A stretch of DNA of 64,000 nt from Escherichia phage SD2. A program made the position numbers and the translations under genes. The stretch lies in sequence record PQ821640. One strand, 5' to 3'. Shown here in pieces: positions 6,697 to 45,087 of the stretch (position 1 is the first letter of the stretch; each line of letters begins with the position of its first letter). Below the pieces are notes generated by a model. It had not been told where the DNA came from and did not search any database. It worked only from the letters and a program-made list of their open reading frames with translations.

Positions 6697-7050
6697 TTAC
6701 ATCCACAGGTTATGAAAATACTTAGCAAACAAAATACGACCTTCTAAACGATCTTGCCGTTGTTTTTCATTAACTTCTTCTGGTGGAGTTGAGTCCTTAA
6801 AAGAAGACTCCATTTTTTCAAGAATTTCTAACCAGTGTTCTGCTGCTCGTTCTTCCATATAAGGTAGATAGTCACCTTTAGCGTGTGGGTACATCCGACG
6901 AAGTAACCCACTAGGAATTTTAACATTGTTTGTGGCTATCACTTTTGCACGATACGCAGAAAGTGCATTGTAGATCAGTTTACTTAGTGTCACATCCAGA
7001 TCAAGAAGATCACTCTCTTCAAATTGAATTTCATCGTGTACAATTTTCAT
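6697..7050 (-). CDS. hypothetical protein
   Basis: 117-aa ORF. Confidence 0.65.
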   Translation of the reverse strand: MKIVHDEIQFEESDLLDLDVTLSKLIYNALSAYRAKVIATNNVKIPSGLLRRMYPHAKGDYLPYMEERAAEHWLEILEKMESSFKDSTPPEEVNEKQRQDRLEGRILFAKYFHNLWM

Positions 7051-10344: not shown

Positions 10345-10360
10345 GTAAGCCAGCAAATAA

Positions 10361-10385
10361 AAACCCGCTTCGGCGGGTTTTCTTG
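10361..10385 (+). terminator. rho-independent terminator
   Basis: CCCGCTTCGGCGGG hairpin followed by TTTTCTT. Confidence 0.75.
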
Positions 10386-12174: not shown

Positions 12175-12382
12175 CAAAATTATTTAAAGTTTTTACAGAT
12201 TTTTGGATACAAATTTTGAAAATGAAAAGTTCAAGTTTGGTCAAAATTATTTAAAGTTTTTGTATGTATTTCTATCCAGATTTTGAAAATGAAAACTTCA
12301 ATTTTTTAAAAATTCCCCAGTTTATTTAAAGTTTTTTTACCTTTTTCCGTAGAAAAATCAAAAATGAAAAGTTCAATTTCGT
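12175..12382. repeat. three tandem direct repeats of about 68 bp
   Basis: Each unit begins TTATTTAAAGTTTTT and ends TTTTGAAAATGAAAAGTTCAA; AT-rich, non-coding. Confidence 0.7.
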
Positions 12383-12400
12383 GTTTTTATGGGTATGCGT

Positions 12401-12515
12401 ATGATAATCATTCTCATTTGTAAATGAGAATCATTATCATTTAATTATGTAAATGATAAGCATTCTCACTAAGAGAATGAGAATCATTAGCAAATGAGAA
12501 TTTTTCTCATTTGCA
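12401..12515. promoter_or_regulatory. cluster of five or more Fur-box-like dyad motifs
   Basis: ATGATAATCATTCTCATT, AATGAGAATCATTATCATT, ATGATAAGCATTCTCA, GAGAATGAGAATCATTAGC, AATGAGAATTTTTCTCATT; compare E. coli Fur box GATAATGATAATCATTATC. Confidence 0.45.
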
Positions 12516-21741: not shown

Positions 21742-21751
21742 ATAACATTTC

Positions 21752-21785
21752 ACACCAGGGCGCACAAAGCGCCCTTTCTTTTTTA
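21752..21785 (+). terminator. rho-independent terminator
   Basis: AGGGCGC-ACAAA-GCGCCCT then TTCTTTTTT. Confidence 0.75.
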
Positions 21786-21988
21786 CCTAAATAAAGATGA
21801 TAGCTTTTACCTATCAAAAACGTTCACCGAAAAAAGTGAATAGATCGCGGTATCGAGCTAATCAAGGAGCAGATGAACAACCATACCATGAAGATCATAA
21901 GGCGCTTACAACGTGTTTTAGACCGCTTATTTTTAATTTCTTCATGTAACTATCTGGCAAAAACAGCCTTTTTCTTGTCTTTCCTCTT

Positions 21989-22065
21989 AAATGATAATCA
22001 TTCTTATTTATAGCTGATTATTTATGCAATAAACTGAATAATGTAATAATGATAATCATTCTTAA
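21989..22065. promoter_or_regulatory. two direct copies of AATGATAATCATTCTTA (Fur-box-like)
   Basis: At about 21989 and 22047 inside an AT-rich non-coding region. Confidence 0.45.
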
Positions 22066-22890
22066 CTTAAGACCATCTAACCTATAAAATAATAAGTTAT
22101 CTAACTAAATTAAAACTAATTATCTCACCTTTATTTATAACTTACTGTTACTATCTCATTGATAACCTTATATTAAACAACAATAACTAATATAAATTAT
22201 TACTAAGCTAAATATAATCTATCTAACCTTTAAAACTATAATTATAATCTATCGAATTGTTGCACAAAGTAACTATTAAATTGTTAGTAACATTACTAAA
22301 TAATTAATATCCTATCTATTTATGATCTAATCTTTACCTTCCTATTTATTACCTAAATAATCATTTCATACCGTAATCATTTCATACAATAATTATAACA
22401 AGAAATATAATTAACAAGCGTATCATTAGCAGCCTATGCCGGACACATAGGCGGCTAATAATAACGCAACTACACACCCCACATAATAACCATCACCGAT
22501 AGTTATTATTTGTGCTTATGTAGCTTGCAACAACTGCAAGCGCAACAATATACATGGTATATTGTATTCCCTTACATTGTTGCGGTGCGTTATTATTAGC
22601 TAATGTTTGGAACATTGGCTATAATATAAGCTATCCAATAATAAACATAGTGAATAATAACCCTGATGATCATAATGCGCCACCTTCCAGGGGGCGCTAT
22701 GTGAACACAAAGAAATCTTTCTTGTCAAGAAAAATATTACCATTATTGCGCAAAATTATTTACATCTGAATAGATGGTTTTTCATACTATTGCCCCATAT
22801 AGCCTATCATTTGTTGAGCCTACTTTCTTAAAAGCGCAATAAATTAGAATTATCTTGATTTTTAGGGCGTTTTATAGTATAGAAAATATG

Positions 22891-22915
22891 CAAATGATAA
22901 TCATTATCAGTTATC
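22891..22915. promoter_or_regulatory. Fur-box-like site AATGATAATCATTATC
   Basis: 16 consecutive matches to the E. coli Fur consensus as I recall it. Confidence 0.5.
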
Positions 22916-23070
22916 TTCCACGGGTGGCACTATTTCACGCAGGATCATTTCATTTGGCAAGGTGTATATAGATGTTTAGACTTGCCAAGCCATTGATTTG
23001 CTTAGAATTTATCTGTTTTGTTGTGAGTAATGCCTTTCTTGCTCAGAAAATAATCAAAAGTCTTATAAGT

Positions 23071-23114
23071 CATTGAATGATAATGCAAATGATAATAATT
23101 CTCATTGATATTTG
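23071..23114. promoter_or_regulatory. degenerate tandem Fur-box-like motifs
   Basis: GAATGATAATGCAAATGATAATAATTCTCATTGATA. Confidence 0.4.
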
Positions 23115-23512
23115 AGGGGGACGGTCAGCAGAAATCGGGGGGCGCTGAAAATCGCGTTAAGCACCTCTCGCAAGCGAGCAGTATTTTGCGGCAAGTTATT
23201 GATATTATTGACTTTACGCTTATGAAAAGGGGGTGTGTCGAAATAAATCGGGTATACCGGAAAATTTTTGTGGCATAGATATTTATTTGTCTATATTATG
23301 TACAAAGGGGTGTGTTAAAAATATTAGGTATATATAGAATAATTGATAGGGAAATCCTATACTAAATCCTTCATTATTGCAGCGGGTGAAAGACAGAATC
23401 GAAGATGCAAATAATGCTTGCATTGGATAGAAATGTCTGTATAGTGGTTTGCATACCGCGCACGACGCGTTTCCATTTTCAATAAAATGTTAGCATTATG
23501 GGGAGGTAGAAA

Positions 23513-34339: not shown

Positions 34340-34344
34340 CACAT

Positions 34345-34370
34345 AAACCCGCTTCGGCGGGTTTTCTTGT
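34345..34370 (+). terminator. rho-independent terminator (same module as 10361)
   Basis: CCCGCTTCGGCGGG then TTTTCTT. Confidence 0.75.
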
Positions 34371-34646: not shown

Positions 34647-34727
34647 ATGACTTTATTAGAGAGTATAGTAGTGTTAATCATCTTTATCATTGTTGTCATA
34701 GGATATTTTACAGAAGACTAAAATAAA

Positions 34728-34759
34728 GCCCCTAGAATCGCTTCTAGGGGCTTTTGTTT
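34728..34759. terminator. bidirectional terminator at the convergence of plus and minus blocks
   Basis: GCCCCTAG-AATCGCT-TCTAGGGGC flanked by A-run upstream and T-run downstream. Confidence 0.7.
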
Positions 34760-35123: not shown

Positions 35124-35936
35124 TTATTTAGTCAAATGATCTTCTATCATTTTTATGAAAGCAGGATTGCTAAAAGCATCTGCGGCCTTTTCTCGATAAA
35201 CAAAGACTCCTCTATCTTCGTAAAGAAGAGTTTCTTCGTAATTAATTCCTGGGTTAACAACAATCATTTTTGTACCCATATTAAGTGCAGGGAATAATTC
35301 CCAATTAAAATTGATAACTTGGTTTGAACATCCTACTACTACAACCAAATCTTGCATGGTCAAAGTATCAAACAAGTGAGCCATATCTGCATACAAAGGT
35401 GCAGCCTCACCAAAAAATACAACATTAGGCTTCACCCAGTTGTAATCATCTATGTTTATACTGTTGTAACCAATATCTACCAGTGTTTTGTAATCCCCAG
35501 GATGCATACGGTAAACTACTTCAGGAAGATATCCGTGCACGTGGATAACAGAATCCCTGTCTACACCTGCTCGCTCTAGTAGATCATCAACGTTTGTTGT
35601 CAAGTTTACTACTTGGTTAGGATATTCCTTAAACCACTTTGCTATTTGAATATGTGCAGCATTAGGTTGTACATCTTTAAGCTCAACACGTCTTTTGTTA
35701 TAAAATTCGTGTGTTTTGGCATACAAATCCATACCGTTTTCGTCTACACCACCAACCACTGGAAGATCTGGTGATGTTCTCACACGATAACCTGCTTGGA
35801 AAGCTCCAATATCGCAGATCTCTTCTAAATCCCATTCTTCCCATAAGGCACGACCACTATCTGTGTCTGTTCGGAATGTTCGAATCCCACTGTCTGCACT
35901 TAAACCAGCTCCACTAACAAAAATTACTCTTCGCAT
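35124..35936 (-). CDS. Sir2-family (sirtuin-like) NAD-binding protein, no Cys4 zinc module seen
   Basis: GAGLSADSGIRTFR, TTNVDDLLERAG, HVHG, PNVVFFGE, VVVGCS match sirtuin core motifs as I recall them. Confidence 0.75.
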   Translation of the reverse strand: MRRVIFVSGAGLSADSGIRTFRTDTDSGRALWEEWDLEEICDIGAFQAGYRVRTSPDLPVVGGVDENGMDLYAKTHEFYNKRRVELKDVQPNAAHIQIAKWFKEYPNQVVNLTTNVDDLLERAGVDRDSVIHVHGYLPEVVYRMHPGDYKTLVDIGYNSINIDDYNWVKPNVVFFGEAAPLYADMAHLFDTLTMQDLVVVVGCSNQVINFNWELFPALNMGTKMIVVNPGINYEETLLYEDRGVFVYREKAADAFSNPAFIKMIEDHLTK

Positions 35937-36493
35937 TCAATATCCTCTTCGTAATCATCATACCAAGAAGATGCGTCGTAACGCTCTTCCTCTTCAAAAT
36001 CCCAATTAATTTCTACTCCAAAATCTAAAAACAATTTAACAATGTTTTCTGTAGAATAGTATTTATCATAAGCGTTAGCTAGTTCCCAATACTTATCACT
36101 CAATTTTTTATAATTAGGATCATTATAATCATGAGCTACTTTATCACCATAATCATACATCTCTTGTTCAGCTTTAAGCATAGCTTCTGGTGTAAGAAGA
36201 TTAGGGAACGGACGATTTCTTTCTTTTAACTTAGAAGCAATCCAGTTTGCAACATTCGCCACTTCACCATCTCGATTATCACCTAAACAACTTGCATAAT
36301 CTCCATCTTCGTAAGTGCCTAAATCCCCACTGACTTCATGTACAATAGATGAATACGATCCACACGTTTCACAATCTGAAAAAGTGTCTACTGTTGTAAT
36401 ATCAATAGATAAAACTGGTAAAGCCATAGCTTCTTTCACACAAGCCTCCTCATATAATAACATATCATCAAAACCCATATATCCTCCAGACAA
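35924..36493 (-). CDS. hypothetical acidic protein
   Basis: 189 aa. Confidence 0.7.
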   Translation of the reverse strand: MSGGYMGFDDMLLYEEACVKEAMALPVLSIDITTVDTFSDCETCGSYSSIVHEVSGDLGTYEDGDYASCLGDNRDGEVANVANWIASKLKERNRPFPNLLTPEAMLKAEQEMYDYGDKVAHDYNDPNYKKLSDKYWELANAYDKYYSTENIVKLFLDFGVEINWDFEEEERYDASSWYDDYEEDIECEE

Positions 36494-36520
36494 ATAAAGC
36501 CCCTGGTTGGGGGCTTTGGT
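36493..36520 (-). terminator. rho-independent terminator
   Basis: AGCCCCCAACCAGGGGCT hairpin with T-run on the minus strand. Confidence 0.6.
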
Positions 36521-36533
36521 TAAGTTTTACGGA

Positions 36534-37145
36534 TTATACCAGACTTTTAAGGTAGTTGTCAAGTGCTTCTTGATCACCTTGACAAACATAGCAACGGAAG
36601 TCTTGAGCAGAAGGTTCTTTGTCCTCTTCCCAATCCCAATAGACAGTACCTTTGTAGCGTGAACCTGGGAACTCGAAGTACGCTACATGGGTAATATGGT
36701 GTGGGCCACCCCAAAACTCTGTAAAAGTAAATTGAGGATACGCTGCTTTAACTGTATTTTCAAACCAAGTTTTACGATCTAATGCTTCGTTTATAAAATA
36801 AGCATGGCGTTCCATTTCATCCCAATCTTTCCAAACGCATTTTTCATCCAAAGAAAAAACAAAATTCTCACTGTTAAAATCGTCTGTATCTGATTCCAAA
36901 ATATCATAATCATGTGCGCTAGGTATCCACCATCCAGCTTCTAATAGTGCTTTCGCAGGTACAAAACCTTTTTCAGCGTATTGATCAAATTCTTTTACTC
37001 TACGTACAGTGCAGTATTCATCTTCACCACCAATGTCCAGTATACAAGCGCCTTTGCGTCTTGCTGCAAGACCATGTGTATCAAAAACTACAACACTACC
37101 TTCACCATCTTCACGATCTACTTGATATGCAACTTTTTGAGTCAT
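36534..37145 (-). CDS. hypothetical protein
   Basis: 203 aa. Confidence 0.7.
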   Translation of the reverse strand: MTQKVAYQVDREDGEGSVVVFDTHGLAARRKGACILDIGGEDEYCTVRRVKEFDQYAEKGFVPAKALLEAGWWIPSAHDYDILESDTDDFNSENFVFSLDEKCVWKDWDEMERHAYFINEALDRKTWFENTVKAAYPQFTFTEFWGGPHHITHVAYFEFPGSRYKGTVYWDWEEDKEPSAQDFRCYVCQGDQEALDNYLKSLV

Positions 37146-37268
37146 ATTACCCCCAATGTATATGGGAAATTAACCAAAAGATAAATTCCCAAAAACACCA
37201 ACCAAGAAAAGTTAATGGAATTATAAAAGCTATCAAAGCAGTCTTCCAGCCTTTCCACAATGTTTCCA

Positions 37269-38258
37269 TCATTCCTCCATACACTTAAGAATATGTGCAA
37301 TGACAGGTATAGTCCAACCATTACCTAACATCTTATATGCTTGTGTGTTACTACTTACTTTAAAGTAATCATCTGGAACACCTTGTAAGCGGCAACACTC
37401 TTTAACCGTTAACTTTCTATAATGCACACCTTCACTCAATTTTTCAAAGGCATCCAGATATCTTCCAGGTGGAATGTAAGCTAATAGTACGTCTTTCGGC
37501 ACAGTCGTGAGGCAACGAGTTTTTTCACTGTCCTGAACTTCCAAGCAATGTACCAAACGATCAGTTTTAGATGTACTACGTTTGCCATTTTCATTAATTC
37601 TACGCCCATATATTGCCGCTGGATAAAAAACCAGTTGTCTGCGACTCTTTTCAAAATACTGTTCTATATTACCACCTTTGGCATAATTTGCATCTATGCA
37701 ATACGCCTTGTCCCTGTCTACAATACTATCATCTTCAATGATATCTTGCAACACTTCATTGGTAATATCCCAAGGCTTTATTTCCCAATTGCACCAGTAT
37801 AAACGTTGTCTATTCTGTGCCGTGAAATCTGCGGAGTTAATGAACACAGGATCAACACCTAAGTAACTTGTGATCACGTTTTCCCACTCCACCTTCATCT
37901 TAACGTTTTCAAGCATGAACTTAACATTAGGGTTAAACTTTTTAATATGTTCAAGGATTTCAACATATTCAAAGAACAGTTTAGATCGCGGATCTTGAAA
38001 GTTCAAACCCTTACCAGAAGAAGAGAAGCCTTGGCACGGACTACCACCTAGCAAAAGATCAATTTCTCCCCACGGGATATCCCATTCTCTCCATTTTGTA
38101 ACATCACCTAATTGAACAATATCTGGAAAATTGGCTTGGCTTTCAGCTATGGCAAATTTGTCCAACTCTGAAGCATAATACTTATCTACTTCAATACCTG
38201 CACTTTTTAGTGCAAGCATTCCTCCTGACATACCATCAAAAAGACTTAAAACTTTCAT
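37269..38258 (-). CDS. DNA (cytosine-5)-methyltransferase
   Basis: Motif I FDGMSGG, motif IV GGSPCQGFS, motif VI ENV. Confidence 0.9.
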   Translation of the reverse strand: MKVLSLFDGMSGGMLALKSAGIEVDKYYASELDKFAIAESQANFPDIVQLGDVTKWREWDIPWGEIDLLLGGSPCQGFSSSGKGLNFQDPRSKLFFEYVEILEHIKKFNPNVKFMLENVKMKVEWENVITSYLGVDPVFINSADFTAQNRQRLYWCNWEIKPWDITNEVLQDIIEDDSIVDRDKAYCIDANYAKGGNIEQYFEKSRRQLVFYPAAIYGRRINENGKRSTSKTDRLVHCLEVQDSEKTRCLTTVPKDVLLAYIPPGRYLDAFEKLSEGVHYRKLTVKECCRLQGVPDDYFKVSSNTQAYKMLGNGWTIPVIAHILKCMEE

Positions 38259-38671
38259 TATTGCTTCTTCTCCTTAACACTAGCTGGTAATTCTGCCTTA
38301 AGGCAGAAGTTTAAACGGTAAGCCTCATTTTCATTTAAAAGTACAGATTCACACGATAACCAGAACAAGAGATCCTCAATACTAGGACTGTGAAGCCAAC
38401 AGTGCAGAAGAGAATGTTGTTCTATATCAATGTAATTTAGCAACAAGCCTTGTAAGGCGTAACTAGTTCCTGTCGTTTTTGCTTTTTCAAGGATGATATT
38501 GTGTTTACTAACAACCTTCTTTCTAAGACCAAACCATTTATTAACAACAACAGTCTCTTCTTGTAGTTGTTTTCTTATTTTCTCACATTCTTTAACTACA
38601 ATCTGCATCTTATCCACTGCTGATTGAAGTTGTTCTTTTGTTGGGTTTACAAAATAGTCACTATAATACAT
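38258..38671 (-). CDS. hypothetical protein
   Basis: 137 aa; sigma70-like promoter immediately upstream on the minus strand. Confidence 0.65.
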   Translation of the reverse strand: MYYSDYFVNPTKEQLQSAVDKMQIVVKECEKIRKQLQEETVVVNKWFGLRKKVVSKHNIILEKAKTTGTSYALQGLLLNYIDIEQHSLLHCWLHSPSIEDLLFWLSCESVLLNENEAYRLNFCLKAELPASVKEKKQ

Positions 38672-38726
38672 ACTAATCTCCTCTTCTGTTTTTGTGTAGT
38701 TTATTCGAAAAAACTGGTGTTGTCAA

Positions 38727-38747
38727 CAAAAAACCCGCCGAAGCGGG
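38727..38747 (-). terminator. rho-independent terminator (reverse complement of the 10361/34345 module)
   Basis: Minus strand reads CCCGCTTCGGCGGG then TTTTTTG. Confidence 0.75.
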
Positions 38748-38753
38748 TTTATA

Positions 38754-39011
38754 TTATTCTACAGGAATTTCTTCACCAAGAGAAACTTCCAAACGGAATG
38801 CTTTACTTTCAATACATTCACTACCTTTTAAGAAATCGAATTGCACTATAGACTGACTTAATAGAATAGATAGAATCACATCGCAATCTTCACTAGGAGC
38901 CAGATGTTTGTATTCTTCCTTCAAGGTAACATCATAAAAACATAAATCCCCTACTCCTAGTTCATCCCATCCTTCCCACGCATCTACAAAGTTAAACTCT
39001 AAACCTTTCAT
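38754..39011 (-). CDS. hypothetical protein
   Basis: 85 aa. Confidence 0.6.
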   Translation of the reverse strand: MKGLEFNFVDAWEGWDELGVGDLCFYDVTLKEEYKHLAPSEDCDVILSILLSQSIVQFDFLKGSECIESKAFRLEVSLGEEIPVE

Positions 39012-39532
39012 ACAACCTCCTCGTAATTGTTATTGTGTTTTACTGTCTCAACATACAATAAAGATTCCATCTGTAAGACATTACCAGAAATAATAAATCC
39101 ATAAGCCATTTCAGATGTGTCTATATCATACGCCCCGTCTTCCGGTTTAGCAAAGTGTAAAACTATTTCATCTGGGTTTTCTTCATCCCATATTTTAGAA
39201 ATTTTCCGAACCAGAATATTAGCTAAAATAGTTGACATTCGGGATAAAGCTGTATCCTCGTATCTTTTAAAACCTAACCAATAGAGGTTAAGAATTTCTA
39301 CTTCTTCTTGTGTTAAGTTTTTGTCTAAAGTAATCAGATCTGTAGGATACATCGTTTTTGTTGAATCTACTATTACAAAACCTGGAGTGTTATGAAAAAC
39401 AATCTTAACTTTATCACGTATGAAGTTTAAACCTTGTGCCTCAACTATATATTGTATTGTAGGTACAATATCGTTTGTTACATCAATAAAGCTATCTTTA
39501 ATGACGCTTATATTATTTCTGGACAAGACCAT
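39008..39532 (-). CDS. hypothetical protein
   Basis: 174 aa. Confidence 0.7.
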   Translation of the reverse strand: MVLSRNNISVIKDSFIDVTNDIVPTIQYIVEAQGLNFIRDKVKIVFHNTPGFVIVDSTKTMYPTDLITLDKNLTQEEVEILNLYWLGFKRYEDTALSRMSTILANILVRKISKIWDEENPDEIVLHFAKPEDGAYDIDTSEMAYGFIISGNVLQMESLLYVETVKHNNNYEEVV

Positions 39533-40091
39533 TCTCCTCTAAAATAGGTTTAATAAATTCGAAGATTTGTTTTTTACTTTTACCTCGAATATTAAAACAA
39601 GGAACATTAAACTTTTTAGCCAACATCCAAGCTGTTCTTGTACCACCTAAAGGATCTCCATTTTTATCTGTATTTGCACAAGCTAAAAGAAAACAAGATG
39701 GTTTTGGATTCTCAAGATCTCTGCCAAGAACTTGGTGGATATTCCTTTGATGTAATTTTTTAGCACCTTGAGATAATCTGTCCCAAGCAGGATGCAATTC
39801 TTTTGCATATTGCAAGGTTAGAGCATAGTTTACACTATCTGGTCTGTCAAGAACAATAACCTCTCCCTCTATCTCATTACCTTTAAACGAAGGCCAAGGA
39901 ATGTATATTTCTTTCTTTGTATTGTTTCCACTATCATATACCCCGCATTCAAATGCGGAATCTGCGCCTTCTGCTTTACCAGATCGTAAAATGAACCATG
40001 TAGATAACCATTTGGCAACAGCTACCATAGTGTCCCATTCTTCGTCTGTAATATCTCTGCTACCAACACCTGTGTAGAATAAATCGCTCAT
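39513..40091 (-). CDS. putative SLOG/DprA-like Rossmann-fold protein
   Basis: Track ORF trimmed to ATG at 40091 (AAGGAGAA SD); GVGSRD and SGKAEGADSAFECG resemble DprA/LOG-type motifs; tentative. Confidence 0.5.
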   Translation of the reverse strand: MSDLFYTGVGSRDITDEEWDTMVAVAKWLSTWFILRSGKAEGADSAFECGVYDSGNNTKKEIYIPWPSFKGNEIEGEVIVLDRPDSVNYALTLQYAKELHPAWDRLSQGAKKLHQRNIHQVLGRDLENPKPSCFLLACANTDKNGDPLGGTRTAWMLAKKFNVPCFNIRGKSKKQIFEFIKPILEENGLVQK

Positions 40092-40101
40092 GGTTTTCTC
40101 C

Positions 40102-40422
40102 TTAACAAGTAATATTGGGAATAATACTGGGAGTAACAATTGGAGTAATAGGGTACGTAAACCAAGGGCTTCCAATTTCCCAAGGACTATAAGGTGTACG
40201 AGGATCAAATGGAGGCGTTACTTGAGGCTTTTTCCAAATCTCCGCTAGTTGTTTCTTCCATTTATCCCTTGCTGTATCGTTATCTTCATCCAACTGTTCG
40301 TCATTATCTTTTATTTCTGATTTTGGAAATAAAAGCTCTTTGACTAACTCAACGTCTTCCGTTTCAATAGTAGTTTCTTTCGTAATATTCCCTACCGTCT
40401 CTTTAATTGTGACTTTATACAT
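40102..40422 (-). CDS. hypothetical protein
   Basis: 106 aa. Confidence 0.6.
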   Translation of the reverse strand: MYKVTIKETVGNITKETTIETEDVELVKELLFPKSEIKDNDEQLDEDNDTARDKWKKQLAEIWKKPQVTPPFDPRTPYSPWEIGSPWFTYPITPIVTPSIIPNITC

Positions 40423-41168
40423 TAGTCCTCCTCTAAAGTAGAATAAAATTGTAACGTATTTGAATCATCAAAATATGCAAAGGTTAAATTACCATTGAAC
40501 ACAGATCCAGTATCCATATATACCCTATTACTGCTAATTACAGGTTTAGGAACATAAGAATGCCCGTGAAATACATAATCTACTCCTGAAACTCTAGGAA
40601 GAAGAATCCCTTCAAGGGCGCAATCTATCATATCACGATCCCACATTAAAGATTCTGTGAATCGAGATACTTGTTCTTTATTCATATTCGAACAAAATGG
40701 CAAAACTTCCGTCACTGGTAGATGTTCCAAAACTGAAGGATATCCTCCGTGAATAAAGCCTAGTTTCATATTACGATAGTTGACAACAAGTACAACAGGT
40801 AAATCTTCTAGCATCAAAGCAAGAGCAGTTGCACCTTCTTCTCCACACTCATTTAGAACTGTATGGCCTCCGTTCTGAAACCAACATTCGTAATATCGCC
40901 TATCACCTTCTAGCAACCCTTTAATCATCATATCTTCGTGATTTCCACGAATAGCATAGCGATTTAGCTTTCTGGTGAATTCAACGGTACAACGAAAATT
41001 CTGCTTGCCGCGATCTGTAAGATCTCCTAAAGATACAACAACATCTTGATCTCGAATACCTAAAGTATTAACACCTTTCTGGTATAAATCAAAGCAACCA
41101 TGTAAATCACCAATAATAAACAGGTCTTGATCATCTTTTACACTAATTTCTTGATATACTAGCATCAA
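40422..41168 (-). CDS. Ser/Thr protein phosphatase (calcineurin-like metallophosphoesterase)
   Basis: GDLHGC, GDLTDRG, GNHE motifs. Confidence 0.8.
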   Translation of the reverse strand: MMLVYQEISVKDDQDLFIIGDLHGCFDLYQKGVNTLGIRDQDVVVSLGDLTDRGKQNFRCTVEFTRKLNRYAIRGNHEDMMIKGLLEGDRRYYECWFQNGGHTVLNECGEEGATALALMLEDLPVVLVVNYRNMKLGFIHGGYPSVLEHLPVTEVLPFCSNMNKEQVSRFTESLMWDRDMIDCALEGILLPRVSGVDYVFHGHSYVPKPVISSNRVYMDTGSVFNGNLTFAYFDDSNTLQFYSTLEED

Positions 41169-41491
41169 CTCTCCTCAAAATCCATAAGTATAAAGATATT
41201 AACTTTACCTTCTATATTATGTTCTACAACAAGATCTGCAAATTCTTTGTAGGCTTTTTCTTCTATTTGCTCAATGTGAGACGCTACATCTTTGTATATA
41301 GCGTCACCATCTACTTTAACAAGGAGGAATAGAGATCTTACCTCAATCTCTTTATTTTTACGGGGTAGAAAATCGACGGCTTCTTGTATACGCCAGCCGA
41401 GATACCCTGGAGTCCTTTGAATATCCTCCAAATGACTTTCTAAGATTTCCCTTCCTTTGTCTATTAAAGCCTGTTCTGTCGTTATTTTCAT
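41165..41491 (-). CDS. hypothetical protein
   Basis: 108 aa. Confidence 0.65.
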   Translation of the reverse strand: MKITTEQALIDKGREILESHLEDIQRTPGYLGWRIQEAVDFLPRKNKEIEVRSLFLLVKVDGDAIYKDVASHIEQIEEKAYKEFADLVVEHNIEGKVNIFILMDFEES

Positions 41492-41501
41492 CCCCTTCTC
41501 C

Positions 41502-42074
41502 TTAATGTGTTAATGAAACTGCGTAACTAAACACAGGTTCAGATATTACATCGGCTACAGTAATAAAAACGTCCTCATCTTGCGTTGTTTCTACACGACA
41601 TACAGTTACACCATTTACCACAAATTCAACGCAATGTGGAATATCTTCACAAACGAATGTAGTGTAAGTAACACCCAAAGCATCATACAAAGATTTAACA
41701 GTATTTGCAAGTGCCGCAGTTTCTTCTTTTTCTGAAACAATGAATGCTGTAACAACAAGATTGTTTGCATAGTTTAGACTGTCCTCTATAGCCAATGATT
41801 TACAAGGTAGTAATGCAAAATATTTACCTGGTTTAATCAGACCTGCTTCCCATTGATTCAAAATTGCCTGGGATGGTTTAGTAATATAAAACAGATTTTC
41901 ACTTGGGTTATCAATATTACTTCTGGCAATACAACGTGAAGGATTATTAATATCAAACACATGATCAAAATCTACACAAACTGGTAAACTGAAAGGTGTA
42001 AATTTTTTACCTAATAATCCTACTGCTGACAATATGTTTGCTGTGCTTATCTTCCCGTTAAAAGCTAAACGCAT
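41502..42074 (-). CDS. hypothetical protein
   Basis: 190 aa. Confidence 0.7.
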   Translation of the reverse strand: MRLAFNGKISTANILSAVGLLGKKFTPFSLPVCVDFDHVFDINNPSRCIARSNIDNPSENLFYITKPSQAILNQWEAGLIKPGKYFALLPCKSLAIEDSLNYANNLVVTAFIVSEKEETAALANTVKSLYDALGVTYTTFVCEDIPHCVEFVVNGVTVCRVETTQDEDVFITVADVISEPVFSYAVSLTH

Positions 42075-42085
42075 ATTTAACTCCT

Positions 42086-42289
42086 TTAACTAGCAACCGT
42101 AACTTCCGAACTTTCTTCTTTCGTACTATCTACGATATGCCTGGTGGCAATATACGAGACTTGCCAGTTACCATCTGGTGTAGTCTCAATAAGTACCCTA
42201 TCTACTTCGAGAAAATGCAAAAATTCAACCATCGCTCGCTTCGATAGGAATTGTTTTTTAACAGTCTCCTCAAAAGATTGAACTGCCAT
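42086..42289 (-). CDS. hypothetical protein
   Basis: 67 aa. Confidence 0.55.
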   Translation of the reverse strand: MAVQSFEETVKKQFLSKRAMVEFLHFLEVDRVLIETTPDGNWQVSYIATRHIVDSTKEESSEVTVAS

Positions 42290-42298
42290 GTTTCCTCC

Positions 42299-42961
42299 TT
42301 ATTTAATATCCAATTTTGCACAAAGACGTTGTACCGCTTTGGCATCGAACAAACTCCCACGAATAGTTCTCTTTCCTGATTCATTCAGATGCTTTGCAAT
42401 CGTCATATATGGCGTTTTACAAGCTCTGTATGCAACTAAAGAATCTTTTAAAGAAAGCGCAAACTCTTTTGAGCGTTTTGCTTCTTCTGTTTTCGTATAA
42501 TCTGTTCTTTTGTATTTAGGGTTTGCTGCACCAAGAAGCGTTCCCTTCGCTTTTGCTACCTTAAGGCTCTTCTTAACACGATCAGATATTGCACGAGCCT
42601 CTTCTTCTGCCAGAACTGCTAAAATATTTATTATCATATTTTCAGCGGAGGGCATAGTTGCTATCCGTACATTAATCATCTCTAACAAGGTTGCAACAGA
42701 AGCTGTGTTACGTCCCAGACGGTCAACCTTAGCAACAACAAGTGTAGCACCTGTTTCTTTGCAAAGATTAACAGCTTTTACAAGCTCTCTACGTTGCTTC
42801 CAATCGCCTTTACCAGAATAAAACTCTGCAAAGCTACCTACAATAGTATAATTTTCTTGTGAATCCAGGAAGCGTTGGATATCTGCTTCCTGTGATTCTA
42901 TACCATACTGGTTGCCTTGTTGTTTCTTCTTAGAAAGTCGATGATACAGTACAAACTTCAT
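42299..42961 (-). CDS. small serine recombinase (resolvase/invertase family)
   Basis: N-terminal YHRLSKKKQQ with catalytic Ser, VAKVDRLGRN motif, C-terminal HTH-like segment. Confidence 0.85.
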   Translation of the reverse strand: MKFVLYHRLSKKKQQGNQYGIESQEADIQRFLDSQENYTIVGSFAEFYSGKGDWKQRRELVKAVNLCKETGATLVVAKVDRLGRNTASVATLLEMINVRIATMPSAENMIINILAVLAEEEARAISDRVKKSLKVAKAKGTLLGAANPKYKRTDYTKTEEAKRSKEFALSLKDSLVAYRACKTPYMTIAKHLNESGKRTIRGSLFDAKAVQRLCAKLDIK

Positions 42962-43018
42962 AACACCCTCCTGTTCTGTTGCAGGAAGTATGCACTACCT
43001 TAATGTTAAAGTCAACAG

Positions 43019-43234
43019 TTAAGTAGTGGTAATATCATCCTCTTGAATATCAGGGTCAACTTCTGCAAAGATAGCCTCTACAGGAATTTCTTCACCTGCT
43101 ATTCTAGAAAGAAGCACTGAACCAATAGCTTTTGCGTGTTCTTCGGATTCCGCATAAACATTAGTTCCTGTGTCTTTTTTCTTAGTTTCGTTAAAATATA
43201 CCAGATAGTAATTGTATGCCATTATTCTTCCCAA
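43019..43234 (-). CDS. hypothetical protein
   Basis: 71 aa. Confidence 0.55.
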   Translation of the reverse strand: MGRIMAYNYYLVYFNETKKKDTGTNVYAESEEHAKAIGSVLLSRIAGEEIPVEAIFAEVDPDIQEDDITTT

Positions 43235-43473
43235 TCGTTGTTACGAGCACTTTCAAGAACCTTGACAACTTCTGCGTACTCTACAGCTAAACCAGCACAC
43301 ACTTCAGCTTGTTTTGCAATTGCTTGCTTAAAGAACATAGCGATTGCAACACTCTGTGTTGTGTGAATGTTATCTGCTTTAGTTGATACATGAAGATCAA
43401 AATCTTCTTCATCAAAGGTGAGTTCCATAGTAACAATAAATTTCTCGGTCATAAAAATGCTCCTCTTAAACAA
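43222..43473 (-). CDS. hypothetical protein
   Basis: 83 aa. Confidence 0.6.
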   Translation of the reverse strand: MFKRSIFMTEKFIVTMELTFDEEDFDLHVSTKADNIHTTQSVAIAMFFKQAIAKQAEVCAGLAVEYAEVVKVLESARNNDWEE

Positions 43474-43975
43474 AATAGAAAGGTTGAGTTAAACCCAGCC
43501 TGTTTTTTGGGTCGTAGACGTACCAAGCATATGCTGTCTTGTCAGTACCACCTGCAACAAAAGATGGTCGTTCAGAAAGAACAATCAAATTTGTTGGTGG
43601 ATTCTGTTTATGGAATTCCCTTCGTTTAATAGACTCTAGGAACCCAAGACGCAACAAGTATATGCAAACGTCTGCTTCTTTTAAGCTCTTTTGCAAGAAC
43701 TCAAGTGCAAGTCTGAATGGTGGATTTGTGATTATAATATCCGGCTTAGTATGCCATTCGTGGTTAAAATAATCCTTCCCTTCTTCTAACTCACAATATT
43801 CTGATCCTTCTGGAAAATATTGATAAATTGCAGCAGCAGCGCCTTTACATGGTTCTGCAAAAATAAAACCTTCTTCTTTAAGGTTATTAAAATCTATTAC
43901 ACTAAATAATGCATTTATACATTTTTGTGGAGTAGGATAGTAATCAGTTGGTGGACGATCATACTTATTTGCCAC
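43466..43975 (-). CDS. DNA N6-adenine methyltransferase (phage type)
   Basis: Catalytic NPPF in DIIITNPPF and an N-terminal Tyr/Pro-rich segment. Confidence 0.75.
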   Translation of the reverse strand: MANKYDRPPTDYYPTPQKCINALFSVIDFNNLKEEGFIFAEPCKGAAAAIYQYFPEGSEYCELEEGKDYFNHEWHTKPDIIITNPPFRLALEFLQKSLKEADVCIYLLRLGFLESIKRREFHKQNPPTNLIVLSERPSFVAGGTDKTAYAWYVYDPKNRLGLTQPFYFV

Positions 43976-44433: not shown

Positions 44434-45087
44434 TTAATTATCAGAGGATACTTTATCAAGTTTTTCAGAGACTGTCAATACTTTTTCTTGTGATTCTTTC
44501 ATTTCTGCTAAAATACTTTCAGCTTCATCACTATCAGGATCACCAGTCAACAGCATACTAATTAGTTGCTCCTTGCTGAAGTTCAGAATATCTTCCGCTG
44601 TTAGCTCCAGTTGTTCTTCAATCTCTTCGACAAAAGTTTCACCGCCTGAAAAAGCATCTCGTAGTTTTGCAACTTCCATCGCTTCTTCTGGGGTTGCCCC
44701 AGCGTCTAAAGCTGCTAAAGCAAAATCTGCCCCACTACCAACAGCATAGTAATCTTCAGTTAAAGGATATGCTCGCGTTGGATTATTACCCTCGTGCATA
44801 TAAATTTTACCGTCTGGGTGAACAACCAATGCCACAAACTCTTCATCTTCTTTATCAGGATCTGACTGGATCACCAAGCCTGGGATTGTCTCTTGTGCTG
44901 CCTGGCACTGTAAGTTTTGTTCGAACCAAGAAAAGAAAGTCAGGATAGAAGACAGACGTCCTGCACCACCAACAAGGTAATCCCCAATTTTACGCACTTT
45001 CTTGAAATTTAAAGTGTCTACTCGATTACCTACTGTTACTTTACCGTCAGATAGAATTTTGTTATGTGTTGCAATAATTGTTGTCAT
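44434..45087 (-). CDS. HslV-like N-terminal-nucleophile peptidase with acidic C-terminal extension
   Basis: MTTIIATHNKILSDGKVTVGN, FxxVRKIGDYLVGGAG and AVGSGADFALAAL resemble E. coli HslV as I recall it; Thr2 as putative nucleophile. Confidence 0.7.
   Translation of the reverse strand: MTTIIATHNKILSDGKVTVGNRVDTLNFKKVRKIGDYLVGGAGRLSSILTFFSWFEQNLQCQAAQETIPGLVIQSDPDKEDEEFVALVVHPDGKIYMHEGNNPTRAYPLTEDYYAVGSGADFALAALDAGATPEEAMEVAKLRDAFSGGETFVEEIEEQLELTAEDILNFSKEQLISMLLTGDPDSDEAESILAEMKESQEKVLTVSEKLDKVSSDN

Follow-up and report, generated by a model that had tools for sequence, protein, structure and literature searches.

Methyltransferase, phosphatase, DprA-like and serine recombinase genes in the metabolism arm of a phi92-like coliphage

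Orphan C5-cytosine DNA methyltransferases (MTases), for which no endonuclease partner is found, are carried by jumbo coliphages of the PBECO4/phAPEC6 group, by Vibrio phage ICP1, and by Bacillus phages of the SPR type. Gamma-class N6-adenine DNA MTases are represented by M.TaqI, CamA, and the cores of type I HsdM proteins, PPP-family phosphatases by lambda NinI and Escherichia coli PrpA and PrpB, the SLOG superfamily by DprA/Smf, and the serine recombinases by small enzymes and by large ones such as CcrB and those of the TP901 type. In Escherichia phage SD2, genes resembling each of these lie together at positions 37269-43975 of the window, that is, of the 64,000 nucleotides of sequence record PQ821640 that were analyzed. 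An earlier note on this DNA had read the stretch as an anti-restriction and host-modulation island. Our analysis favors a different account, to which we assign a probability of roughly 0.7: the stretch makes up the last, promoter-distal 7 kb in an approximately 30-kb leftward arm for nucleotide and DNA metabolism, and it holds vertically inherited, independent accessory genes that form neither one system nor an acquired island.

The five enzyme genes were all found within 7 kb where the earlier note had placed them, on the minus strand and with catalytic motifs intact, and they are interleaved, as it had described, with 12 small open reading frames (ORFs) that have no recognized domains. The genes, their annotations in phi92 and ~50 relatives, and the restriction phenotype are already public. 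Existing records use the labels "DNA methyltransferase," "DprA-like," "NinI-like serine-threonine phosphatase," "DNA invertase," and "putative N6 adenine methyltransferase," the last being the GenBank label of a 169-amino-acid (169-aa) protein.

Arm context, inheritance, and restriction phenotype

The window belongs to a phi92-like Justusliebigvirus of the subfamily Stephanstirmvirinae, which are virulent myophages of ~147 kb. When positions 37269-43975 were searched by megablast, 55 phage records were recovered, 53 of which reach a query coverage of 80% or more at 95-99% identity; Escherichia phage alia ranked first (99.0%), with PaulScherrer (Bas60) at 98.0% and phi92 at 97.1%. Bas61 and Bas62 share ~98% identity with the window across the surrounding 25 kb, and a 25-kb query centered on the region was colinear on one strand in ~50 genomes, in most cases as one uninterrupted alignment.

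From 34.8 kb to the end of the window at 64 kb, every ORF lies on the minus strand. The arm begins with DNA ligase, MazG-like, RdgC-like, two exonuclease, HNH, TK, ThyA, and NrdA/B genes, continues with RmlA-D, glutaredoxin, lysozyme, PhoH, and an HslV-like protease, and only then reaches the stretch under study, which is followed by Sir2 and a bidirectional terminator (34725-34754). Recognizable enzymes are less dense in the 7-kb stretch than in the 20 kb upstream of it, so that the clustering seen by the earlier note does not stand out from its context: the whole 34.8-64 kb arm is enzyme-rich. The G+C content of 37269-43975 is 0.35-0.38, the same as in the flanks and the remaining window, tRNA and Rfam scans of the window gave no matches, and matches to defense-type PADLOC models were limited to the two MTases.

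Synteny across genera was assessed by tblastn against loci of phAPEC8, Citrobacter phage Tr1, and Klebsiella phage KP13-26, plus rV5. The order PhoH, o164, HslV-like protease, o142, small MTase, o76, o71, (o67), 190-aa ORF, (o108), phosphatase, o106, DprA-like gene, and o174 is common to phAPEC8, Tr1, and KP13-26, followed by o85 where the fetched locus extends that far; the bracketed ORFs are missing from some of the Stephanstirmvirinae lineages compared. Backbone proteins share 31-86% amino acid identity with their counterparts in these three phages, and the best-conserved members of the block are its enzymes, namely, the small MTase (77-86%), the DprA-like protein (66-78%), and the phosphatase (65-76%). 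In rV5, a member of the Vequintavirinae, the order of PhoH, protease, and small MTase is kept, and no phosphatase or DprA-like homolog was found within the fetched 18-kb locus. In 53 genomes the region is covered at 100% with 97-99% identity. The only variable parts of the region are the C5-MTase module, which is deleted in Bas62, and the position of the recombinase. With ordinary G+C content, colinearity in ~50 genomes, synteny across genera, and neither tRNA genes nor a mobility signature, the stretch does not fit the term "island."

The restriction phenotype of close relatives was taken from the BASEL raw data (S1 Data; PMC8594841) for Bas60, Bas61, and Bas62. BASEL phage JohannJBalmer (Bas62, MZ501084.1) is without the sequence equal to window 36841-38960, a natural 2.1-kb deletion that takes out the C5-MTase, a 137-aa ORF, most of an 85-aa ORF, and the N-terminal half of a 203-aa ORF; the deletion junction (6821-6845 of the Bas62 locus, L011) has short imperfect microhomology. 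Bas62 is viable without this module, which is therefore dispensable on K-12. Zero plaques were obtained on EcoRI, EcoRV, and EcoP1 hosts with Bas60 and Bas61, which have the C5-MTase, and equally with Bas62, which does not (PMC8594841). Counted in both orientations, Bas60 contains 68 EcoRI and 108 EcoRV sites. The efficiency of plating (EOP) of the three phages was 0.1-0.7 on EcoKI and 0.46-1.3 on EcoCFT_I, and on EcoCFT_II it was 0.11-0.56 for Bas60 and Bas61 and 0.06-0.11 for Bas62; Fun/Z blocks all three (PMC8594841). Because no plaques form on the EcoRI, EcoRV, and EcoP1 hosts with or without the C5-MTase, any anti-restriction role is narrow and site-specific. Plating on defined restriction hosts thus goes against the earlier note, Bas62 behaving essentially like the two phages that retain the enzyme. 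What survives of the proposed anti-restriction and host-modulation role is the presence of two orphan MTases with no detectable endonuclease partner, the replacement of alleles at the C5-MTase slot, and a plausible phosphatase; a general anti-restriction function does not survive. Neither methylome nor mutant studies of these genes turned up in searches of the literature.

That the genes form a dedicated island, jointly protecting phage DNA and rewiring host signaling, is in our estimation distinctly improbable. Two MTases do lie inside 7 kb, a phosphatase and a Sir2 gene lie in or beside the stretch, allele replacement has occurred at the C5 slot, and sigma-70-like promoters suggest early expression. 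Set against these points, EcoRI, EcoRV, and EcoP1 restrict near-identical phages completely, EcoKI and EcoCFT_II do so in part, the natural deletion of the C5-MTase barely alters the phenotype, and later work reported Stephanstirmvirinae to be sensitive to Druantia III, ARMADA II, and retron Eco2. Furthermore, the block is inherited vertically across genera without a compositional or mobility signature, and the recombinase is located elsewhere in sister genera; therefore, the gene set is not coinherited.

Site frequencies point to another means of evading restriction. Observed/expected (O/E) ratios were compared between window positions 1-64000 and phAPEC8 locus positions 1-50000. The window avoids GGCC (15 sites versus 64.5 expected, O/E of 0.23), GGWCC (1 versus 16.8), and AAGCTT (1 versus 19.6), and it contains zero GGATCC, CTGCAG, CCATGG, GAGCTC, GTCGAC, CAGCTG, or AGCGCT sites, while GATC (O/E of 1.09), CCWGG (1.24), GCGC (1.11), GAATTC, and GATATC are not avoided. 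The phAPEC8 locus shows no avoidance of AAGCTT or GGWCC and a stronger avoidance of GTAC than the window does; GATC, CCWGG, and GCGC are avoided in neither. Since avoidance of palindromes is strong and genus specific, it looks like the main, fast-evolving anti-restriction strategy of these phages. An assignment of MTase targets from these data was attempted and rejected: the differences between genera (AAGCTT, GGWCC, and GTAC) are large, yet no site cleanly tracks the swap of MTases described below.

The two methyltransferases

The cytosine-5 MTase named in the earlier note was borne out. The gene (37269..38258, minus strand) encodes an orphan enzyme of 329 aa (phrog_116) that matches PF00145 end to end (residues 1-327 of 329, E=1.6e-43), TIGR00675 (141 bits), and PADLOC type II MTase models, and five motifs, I (FDGMSG), IV (PCQ), VI (ENV), VIII (QNRQR), and X (GNG), begin at residues 7, 74, 117, 148, and 312. 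It resembles the orphan phage enzymes cited above both in this full motif set and in having no endonuclease partner, and its nearest relatives outside the genus, at ~50% identity, are found in jumbo coliphages, ICP1, and a Vibrio siphophage. The best sequence matches in the PDB were DNMT3A/B, M.HhaI, and M.HaeIII, the N-terminal half being slightly closer to DNMT3A/B than to the two bacterial enzymes. Orthology to E. coli Dcm or M.EcoRII (CCWGG) was considered and rejected, as the PRK10458/NF007772 model, which has a cut-off of 710 bits, scored 30 bits and aligned to residues 280-328 only. The PDB chains 3lx6 and 3me5, annotated as "cytosine-specific methyltransferase" and presumably Dcm-type enzymes, also align at the C terminus only.

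No cognate endonuclease was found beside the C5-MTase: the 137-, 203-, 142-, and 76-aa ORFs near the two MTases have no Pfam match, the first three have no NCBIfam match, and the 137-aa ORF has no PADLOC match. Nor is the 203-aa neighbor a specificity-matched nuclease, because it is 67% conserved beside a different MTase in phAPEC8. The C5-MTase and the 137-aa ORF that precedes it (38258..38671, minus strand; phrog_16551) make up a predicted separate transcription unit, in which a terminator-like hairpin (38731-38750) is followed on the minus strand by a sigma-70-like promoter, TTGACA-17-TAAACT (38726-38698), a ribosome-binding site, and the two reading frames; hairpin and promoter were called by pattern scan and reading of the sequence. 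The phAPEC8 record annotates a terminator at the equivalent place.

Comparison with phAPEC8 revealed that the enzyme itself has been exchanged within this layout. The 137-aa ORF has its homolog in phAPEC8 gp193, a member of the same PHROG (24% identity, E=9e-13), and the downstream 203-aa ORF (phrog_8514) has its homolog in gp195; between gp193 and gp195 lies a different C5-like MTase of 227 aa, which belongs to phrog_757 rather than phrog_116 and has the motifs FDGSG, FPPC, and ENP. This is a conserved C5-type slot with its own terminator and promoter in which alleles have been replaced between genera, as expected of a gene under restriction-driven selection. In the window, the stop codon of the 137-aa ORF overlaps the start codon of the C5-MTase (shared base 38258), and the same stop-on-start overlap is seen in this genus and in phAPEC8, whichever C5-type MTase fills the slot. 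The 137-aa protein could be a partner or regulator of the MTase.

A second MTase gene (43466..43975, minus strand) encodes the 169-aa protein, an amino-MTase of phrog_799 (E=5e-56) with EPCKG and NPPF motifs. Since this call and that of the DprA-like protein initially relied on PHROG labels alone, predicted structures were examined for both. Pfam, NCBIfam, and PDB sequence searches with the 169-aa protein were without match, and a weak match to a PADLOC type II MTase model was obtained. EPCxG and ITNPPF are conserved across its family, and the predicted model (predicted local distance difference test [pLDDT] of 91.6) is a single amino-MTase Rossmann core that combines the gamma-class catalytic NPPF with the S-adenosylmethionine-binding motif I. 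In these respects, the chemistry and fold that the earlier note implied by "N6-adenine methyltransferase" are sound, with DNA as a candidate substrate. Unlike M.TaqI, CamA, and the HsdM cores, the protein is only 169 aa long, has no separate target-recognition domain, and falls under no model of Pfam or NCBIfam; in the place expected for a recognition element, after the RPxF motif, the family has only a short variable loop, with a four-cysteine insert in some relatives.

Fold matches of the 169-aa model are split between DNA and RNA N6-methyladenine (m6A) MTases, the protein being equally similar to the RNA enzymes METTL5 and PH1948. An alternative is that neither the small NPPF enzyme nor, possibly, any of the backbone from PhoH to the DprA-like gene serves DNA protection: the enzyme would methylate RNA (m6A in rRNA or tRNA) or be regulatory, and the phosphatase and SLOG protein would disturb host stress or immune signaling. 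We regard this as unlikely. The DNA m6A MTases MmeI and M.TaqI score nearly equally (12.9 and 12.8), and CamA is the best match by Foldseek. Distant homologs of the 169-aa protein are found in phage replication modules with primase, ribonucleotide reductase, and 5'-3' exonuclease genes, which together with the weak PADLOC match speaks for DNA. A GATC-type specificity would account both for the conservation of the protein and for the lack of GATC avoidance. A more elaborate form of the same idea, in which the backbone of PhoH, HslV-like protease, 169-aa MTase, phosphatase, and DprA/SLOG protein would have no part in DNA protection, its MTase would place m6A on host or phage RNA (rRNA or tRNA), and the SLOG protein would act as a sponge for immune nucleotides or as a ShosA-like antitoxin mimic, has in our view a slim chance of being correct. 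If true, it would describe a host-takeover and anti-abortive-infection module common to the Stephanstirmvirinae and, in part, the Vequintavirinae.

Whatever its substrate, the 169-aa enzyme does not appear to be a nonspecific DNA adenine MTase, as restriction of the relatives is complete in three systems that are sensitive to adenine methylation.

Phosphatase, DprA-like protein, and serine recombinase

The Ser/Thr phosphatase of the earlier note was confirmed as a PPP-family metallophosphatase of the lambda NinI or PrpA/PrpB type (247 aa; 40422..41165, minus strand). It matches PF00149 (E=4e-14, 53.8 bits against a cut-off of 21.5) and the NinI-like phrog_246 (E=6e-77), and, like lambda NinI and E. 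coli PrpA and PrpB, it has every signature motif: GDLHG, GDLTDRG, GNHE, HGG, and GH, at residues 19, 47, 74, 139, and 201. The PrpA and PrpB NCBIfam models align over their full length and score 100 and 86 bits, far below their equivalog cut-offs of 326 and 332; therefore, the protein is a member of the family and not an ortholog. A host-modulating role for this lambda-type phosphatase is plausible.

For the possible SLOG/DprA-like protein (192 aa; 39513..40091, minus strand; phrog_768, E=2e-60), the earlier call was right at the level of the fold. The motifs GSR, RSGxAxGxD, HxRNxxQxxG, and GGT are found across 44 homologs, in which G10, S11, R12, G38, A40, G42, and D44 are invariant and S37 is conserved in at least 90%. 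The query itself has no Pfam or NCBIfam match; PF02481 is recorded for five homologs in a wider search list. The AlphaFold2 model (pLDDT of 96.7) is a single domain for which Foldseek returned Helicobacter pylori DprA as the best match (E=7e-5), followed by a Moco carrier protein, ShosA, the SLOG domain of ThsA, YpsA, and LOG, with TM of ~0.5. The protein thus shares with DprA/Smf and the SLOG superfamily the Rossmann-type SLOG fold and the GSR and SGxAxGxD motifs, and we describe it as a stand-alone Rossmann protein of the DprA/SLOG type.

The serine recombinase (220 aa; 42299..42961, minus strand) was likewise correctly recognized. It matches PF00239 (E=8e-22, 78 bits), phrog_125, and phrog_95, carries the motifs YHRLS, with the nucleophile Ser10, and DRLGR, and consists of a resolvase catalytic domain plus a short C-terminal part resembling the start of the "Recombinase" domain of large serine recombinases. 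Matches in the PDB were to Bin3 (a putative Tn552 DNA-invertase), Tn3 resolvase, and gamma-delta resolvase, and weak matches to CcrB, Mpi, and YneB models were also seen. Identity across the subfamily is 51-78%, and one homolog carries PF07508. The YxRxS serine, DRLxR, and C-terminal Recombinase-like stretch are features of small serine recombinases and of the N-terminal part of large ones (CcrB, TP901-type). Unlike those enzymes, this one is encoded by strictly virulent phages, is without zinc-ribbon and coiled-coil domains, and occupies two alternative loci in one subfamily.

These two loci set the gene apart from the backbone. Only in Justusliebigvirus and KP13-26 does the recombinase adjoin the small MTase; the copies in phAPEC8 and Tr1 lie within an opposite, plus-strand block of small early ORFs. 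A pair of elements resembling -35 and -10 boxes precedes it in 4 of 4 compared copies, at either locus, and in the window this is a sigma-70-like promoter, TTGACT-17-CATACT (42987..43015, minus strand), directly upstream of the gene. The recombinase gene forms a cassette that brings its own predicted promoter and occupies either of two loci. Its 300-nucleotide flanks at the two loci share nothing beyond chance and no common repeats, and shuffling of the plus-strand block between genera leaves the window with no clean empty site.

It is highly improbable that the recombinase is a DNA invertase switching an adjacent segment, for example for host range, as Gin, Cin, and Hin do. The label "DNA invertase" is used in PHROGs and GenBank, and the resolvase/invertase catalytic domain of the protein is intact. 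Nevertheless, no inverted repeats of at least 22 nucleotides surround any segment near the gene, the long matches being reused terminator hairpins, and more generally no convincing inverted or direct repeats that could mark recombination sites or an invertible segment were found near the gene or across the window. No res, hix, or att sites were found. The 25 kb around the gene shows no orientation polymorphism in ~50 independent assemblies, in sister genera the gene sits at a different locus among unrelated neighbors, and no match to Pfam HTH_7 was found. Neither the recombinase nor the DprA-like protein has an evident link to restriction.

Smaller features, proposed roles, and implications

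The remaining small ORFs of the stretch, all on the minus strand, include, besides the 137-aa ORF, an 85-aa ORF (38754..39011; phrog_4991; 44-49% identity in phAPEC8 and Tr1), a 174-aa ORF (39008..39532; phrog_8569; 31-34% identity in phAPEC8, Tr1, and KP13-26), a 106-aa ORF (40102..40422; phrog_15301), a 108-aa ORF (41165..41491; phrog_15398), two 67-aa ORFs (42086..42289, and 43019..43222, the latter phrog_15892), a 76-aa ORF (43222..43452; phrog_14731), and a conserved 190-aa ORF (41502..42074; phrog_4806; 59-65% identity across genera). The last of these is one of the 12 small ORFs and carries an unverified PHROG label: "histidyl tRNA synthetase," given in PHROGs and GenBank, was rejected, being unsupported by Pfam, NCBIfam, PDB phmmer, and a four-sequence profile search. 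The PHROGs/GenBank label "putative aminoacyl-tRNA synthetase" for 35924-36493 has no Pfam support either.

Two genes of the same conserved arm flank the stretch, a Sir2-family protein gene (35124-35936; PF02146, E=3e-22) and an HslV/proteasome-like peptidase gene (44434-45087; weak PF00227 match, phrog_1040), neither of which matches a PADLOC model. Upstream of Sir2 and a 189-aa ORF, positions 36533-36562 match the sigma-70 consensus perfectly (TTGACA-18-TATAAT, preceded by TG) and come after a terminator hairpin (36496-36517); the last genes of the arm may therefore form a unit that the host RNA polymerase transcribes strongly. The G+C-rich hairpin AAACCCGCTTCGGCGGGTTT is present three times in the window (10356-10381, 34343-34365, and 38730-38755) and looks like a reused, apparently bidirectional intrinsic terminator.

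Elsewhere in the window, two AT-rich, ORF-poor regions are candidate origin or regulatory regions: 12175-12468, with tandem repeats of 67 bp (2 copies) and 29 bp (2.1 copies), and ~21750-23500, with a G+C content of ~0.34 and a 16-bp repeat (2.4 copies) at 22356. Repeat regions are also annotated at the matching place in the alia record, given an indel of ~1.8 kb. Four GenBank records titled "Campylobacter phage" (MG065639, MG065645, MG065656, and MG065689) are 98% identical to this coliphage region, so that they probably name the wrong host or else represent contaminants.

Considered together, the genes suggest the following roles. The C5-MTase would methylate replicating phage DNA at one short site, so that progeny would be protected only from endonucleases sharing that site, and the 169-aa NPPF enzyme would most likely do likewise at an adenine-containing site other than GAATTC, GATATC, or AGACC. 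Most evasion of restriction would stem from the strong avoidance of palindromic sites. The lambda-NinI-like phosphatase would dephosphorylate host proteins phosphorylated on Ser, Thr, or Tyr early in infection. Judging from its fold and gene position, the DprA-like Rossmann protein may bind single-stranded DNA and help to load a recombinase for recombination-dependent replication, a role that fits because the arm also encodes RdgC-like and exonuclease genes. The serine recombinase would be a self-promoted cassette.

Several points weigh against this account. The roles in methylation, DprA-like binding, and dephosphorylation were inferred from sequence, fold, and context, and the promoters and terminators were called as matches to consensus patterns only. 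The absence of a target-recognition domain from the 169-aa MTase and the fold matches that it shares with RNA m6A enzymes may make a DNA substrate doubtful; moreover, no other protein of the block is as well conserved (up to 86% identity), which is unusual for a gene in an arms race. Unlike DprA, the 192-aa protein is without N-terminal SAM and C-terminal winged-helix (DNA-binding) domains, and nucleotide-binding SLOG proteins, ThsA and LOG among them, are matched by its fold as well. Finally, the lower EOP of Bas62 on EcoCFT_II could be due to a minor contribution of the C5 module or to noise between strains.

The practical value of these findings is modest, and the understanding of phage anti-restriction is unchanged by them. 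For phage therapy and for users of the BASEL collection, they mean that these MTases give no general resistance to restriction. Three subjects are nonetheless worth following up. Bas62 offers a natural knockout of the C5-MTase module that is already at hand, useful for reading the specificity of the enzyme and for testing the response of retron Ec86/Eco1, which a phage C5-MTase activates, as cited in the later work on Stephanstirmvirinae. The MTase slot with its conserved 137-aa ORF is the second. The third is the 169-aa NPPF family, which has no Pfam model and no characterized member and yet is conserved across two subfamilies of large coliphages.

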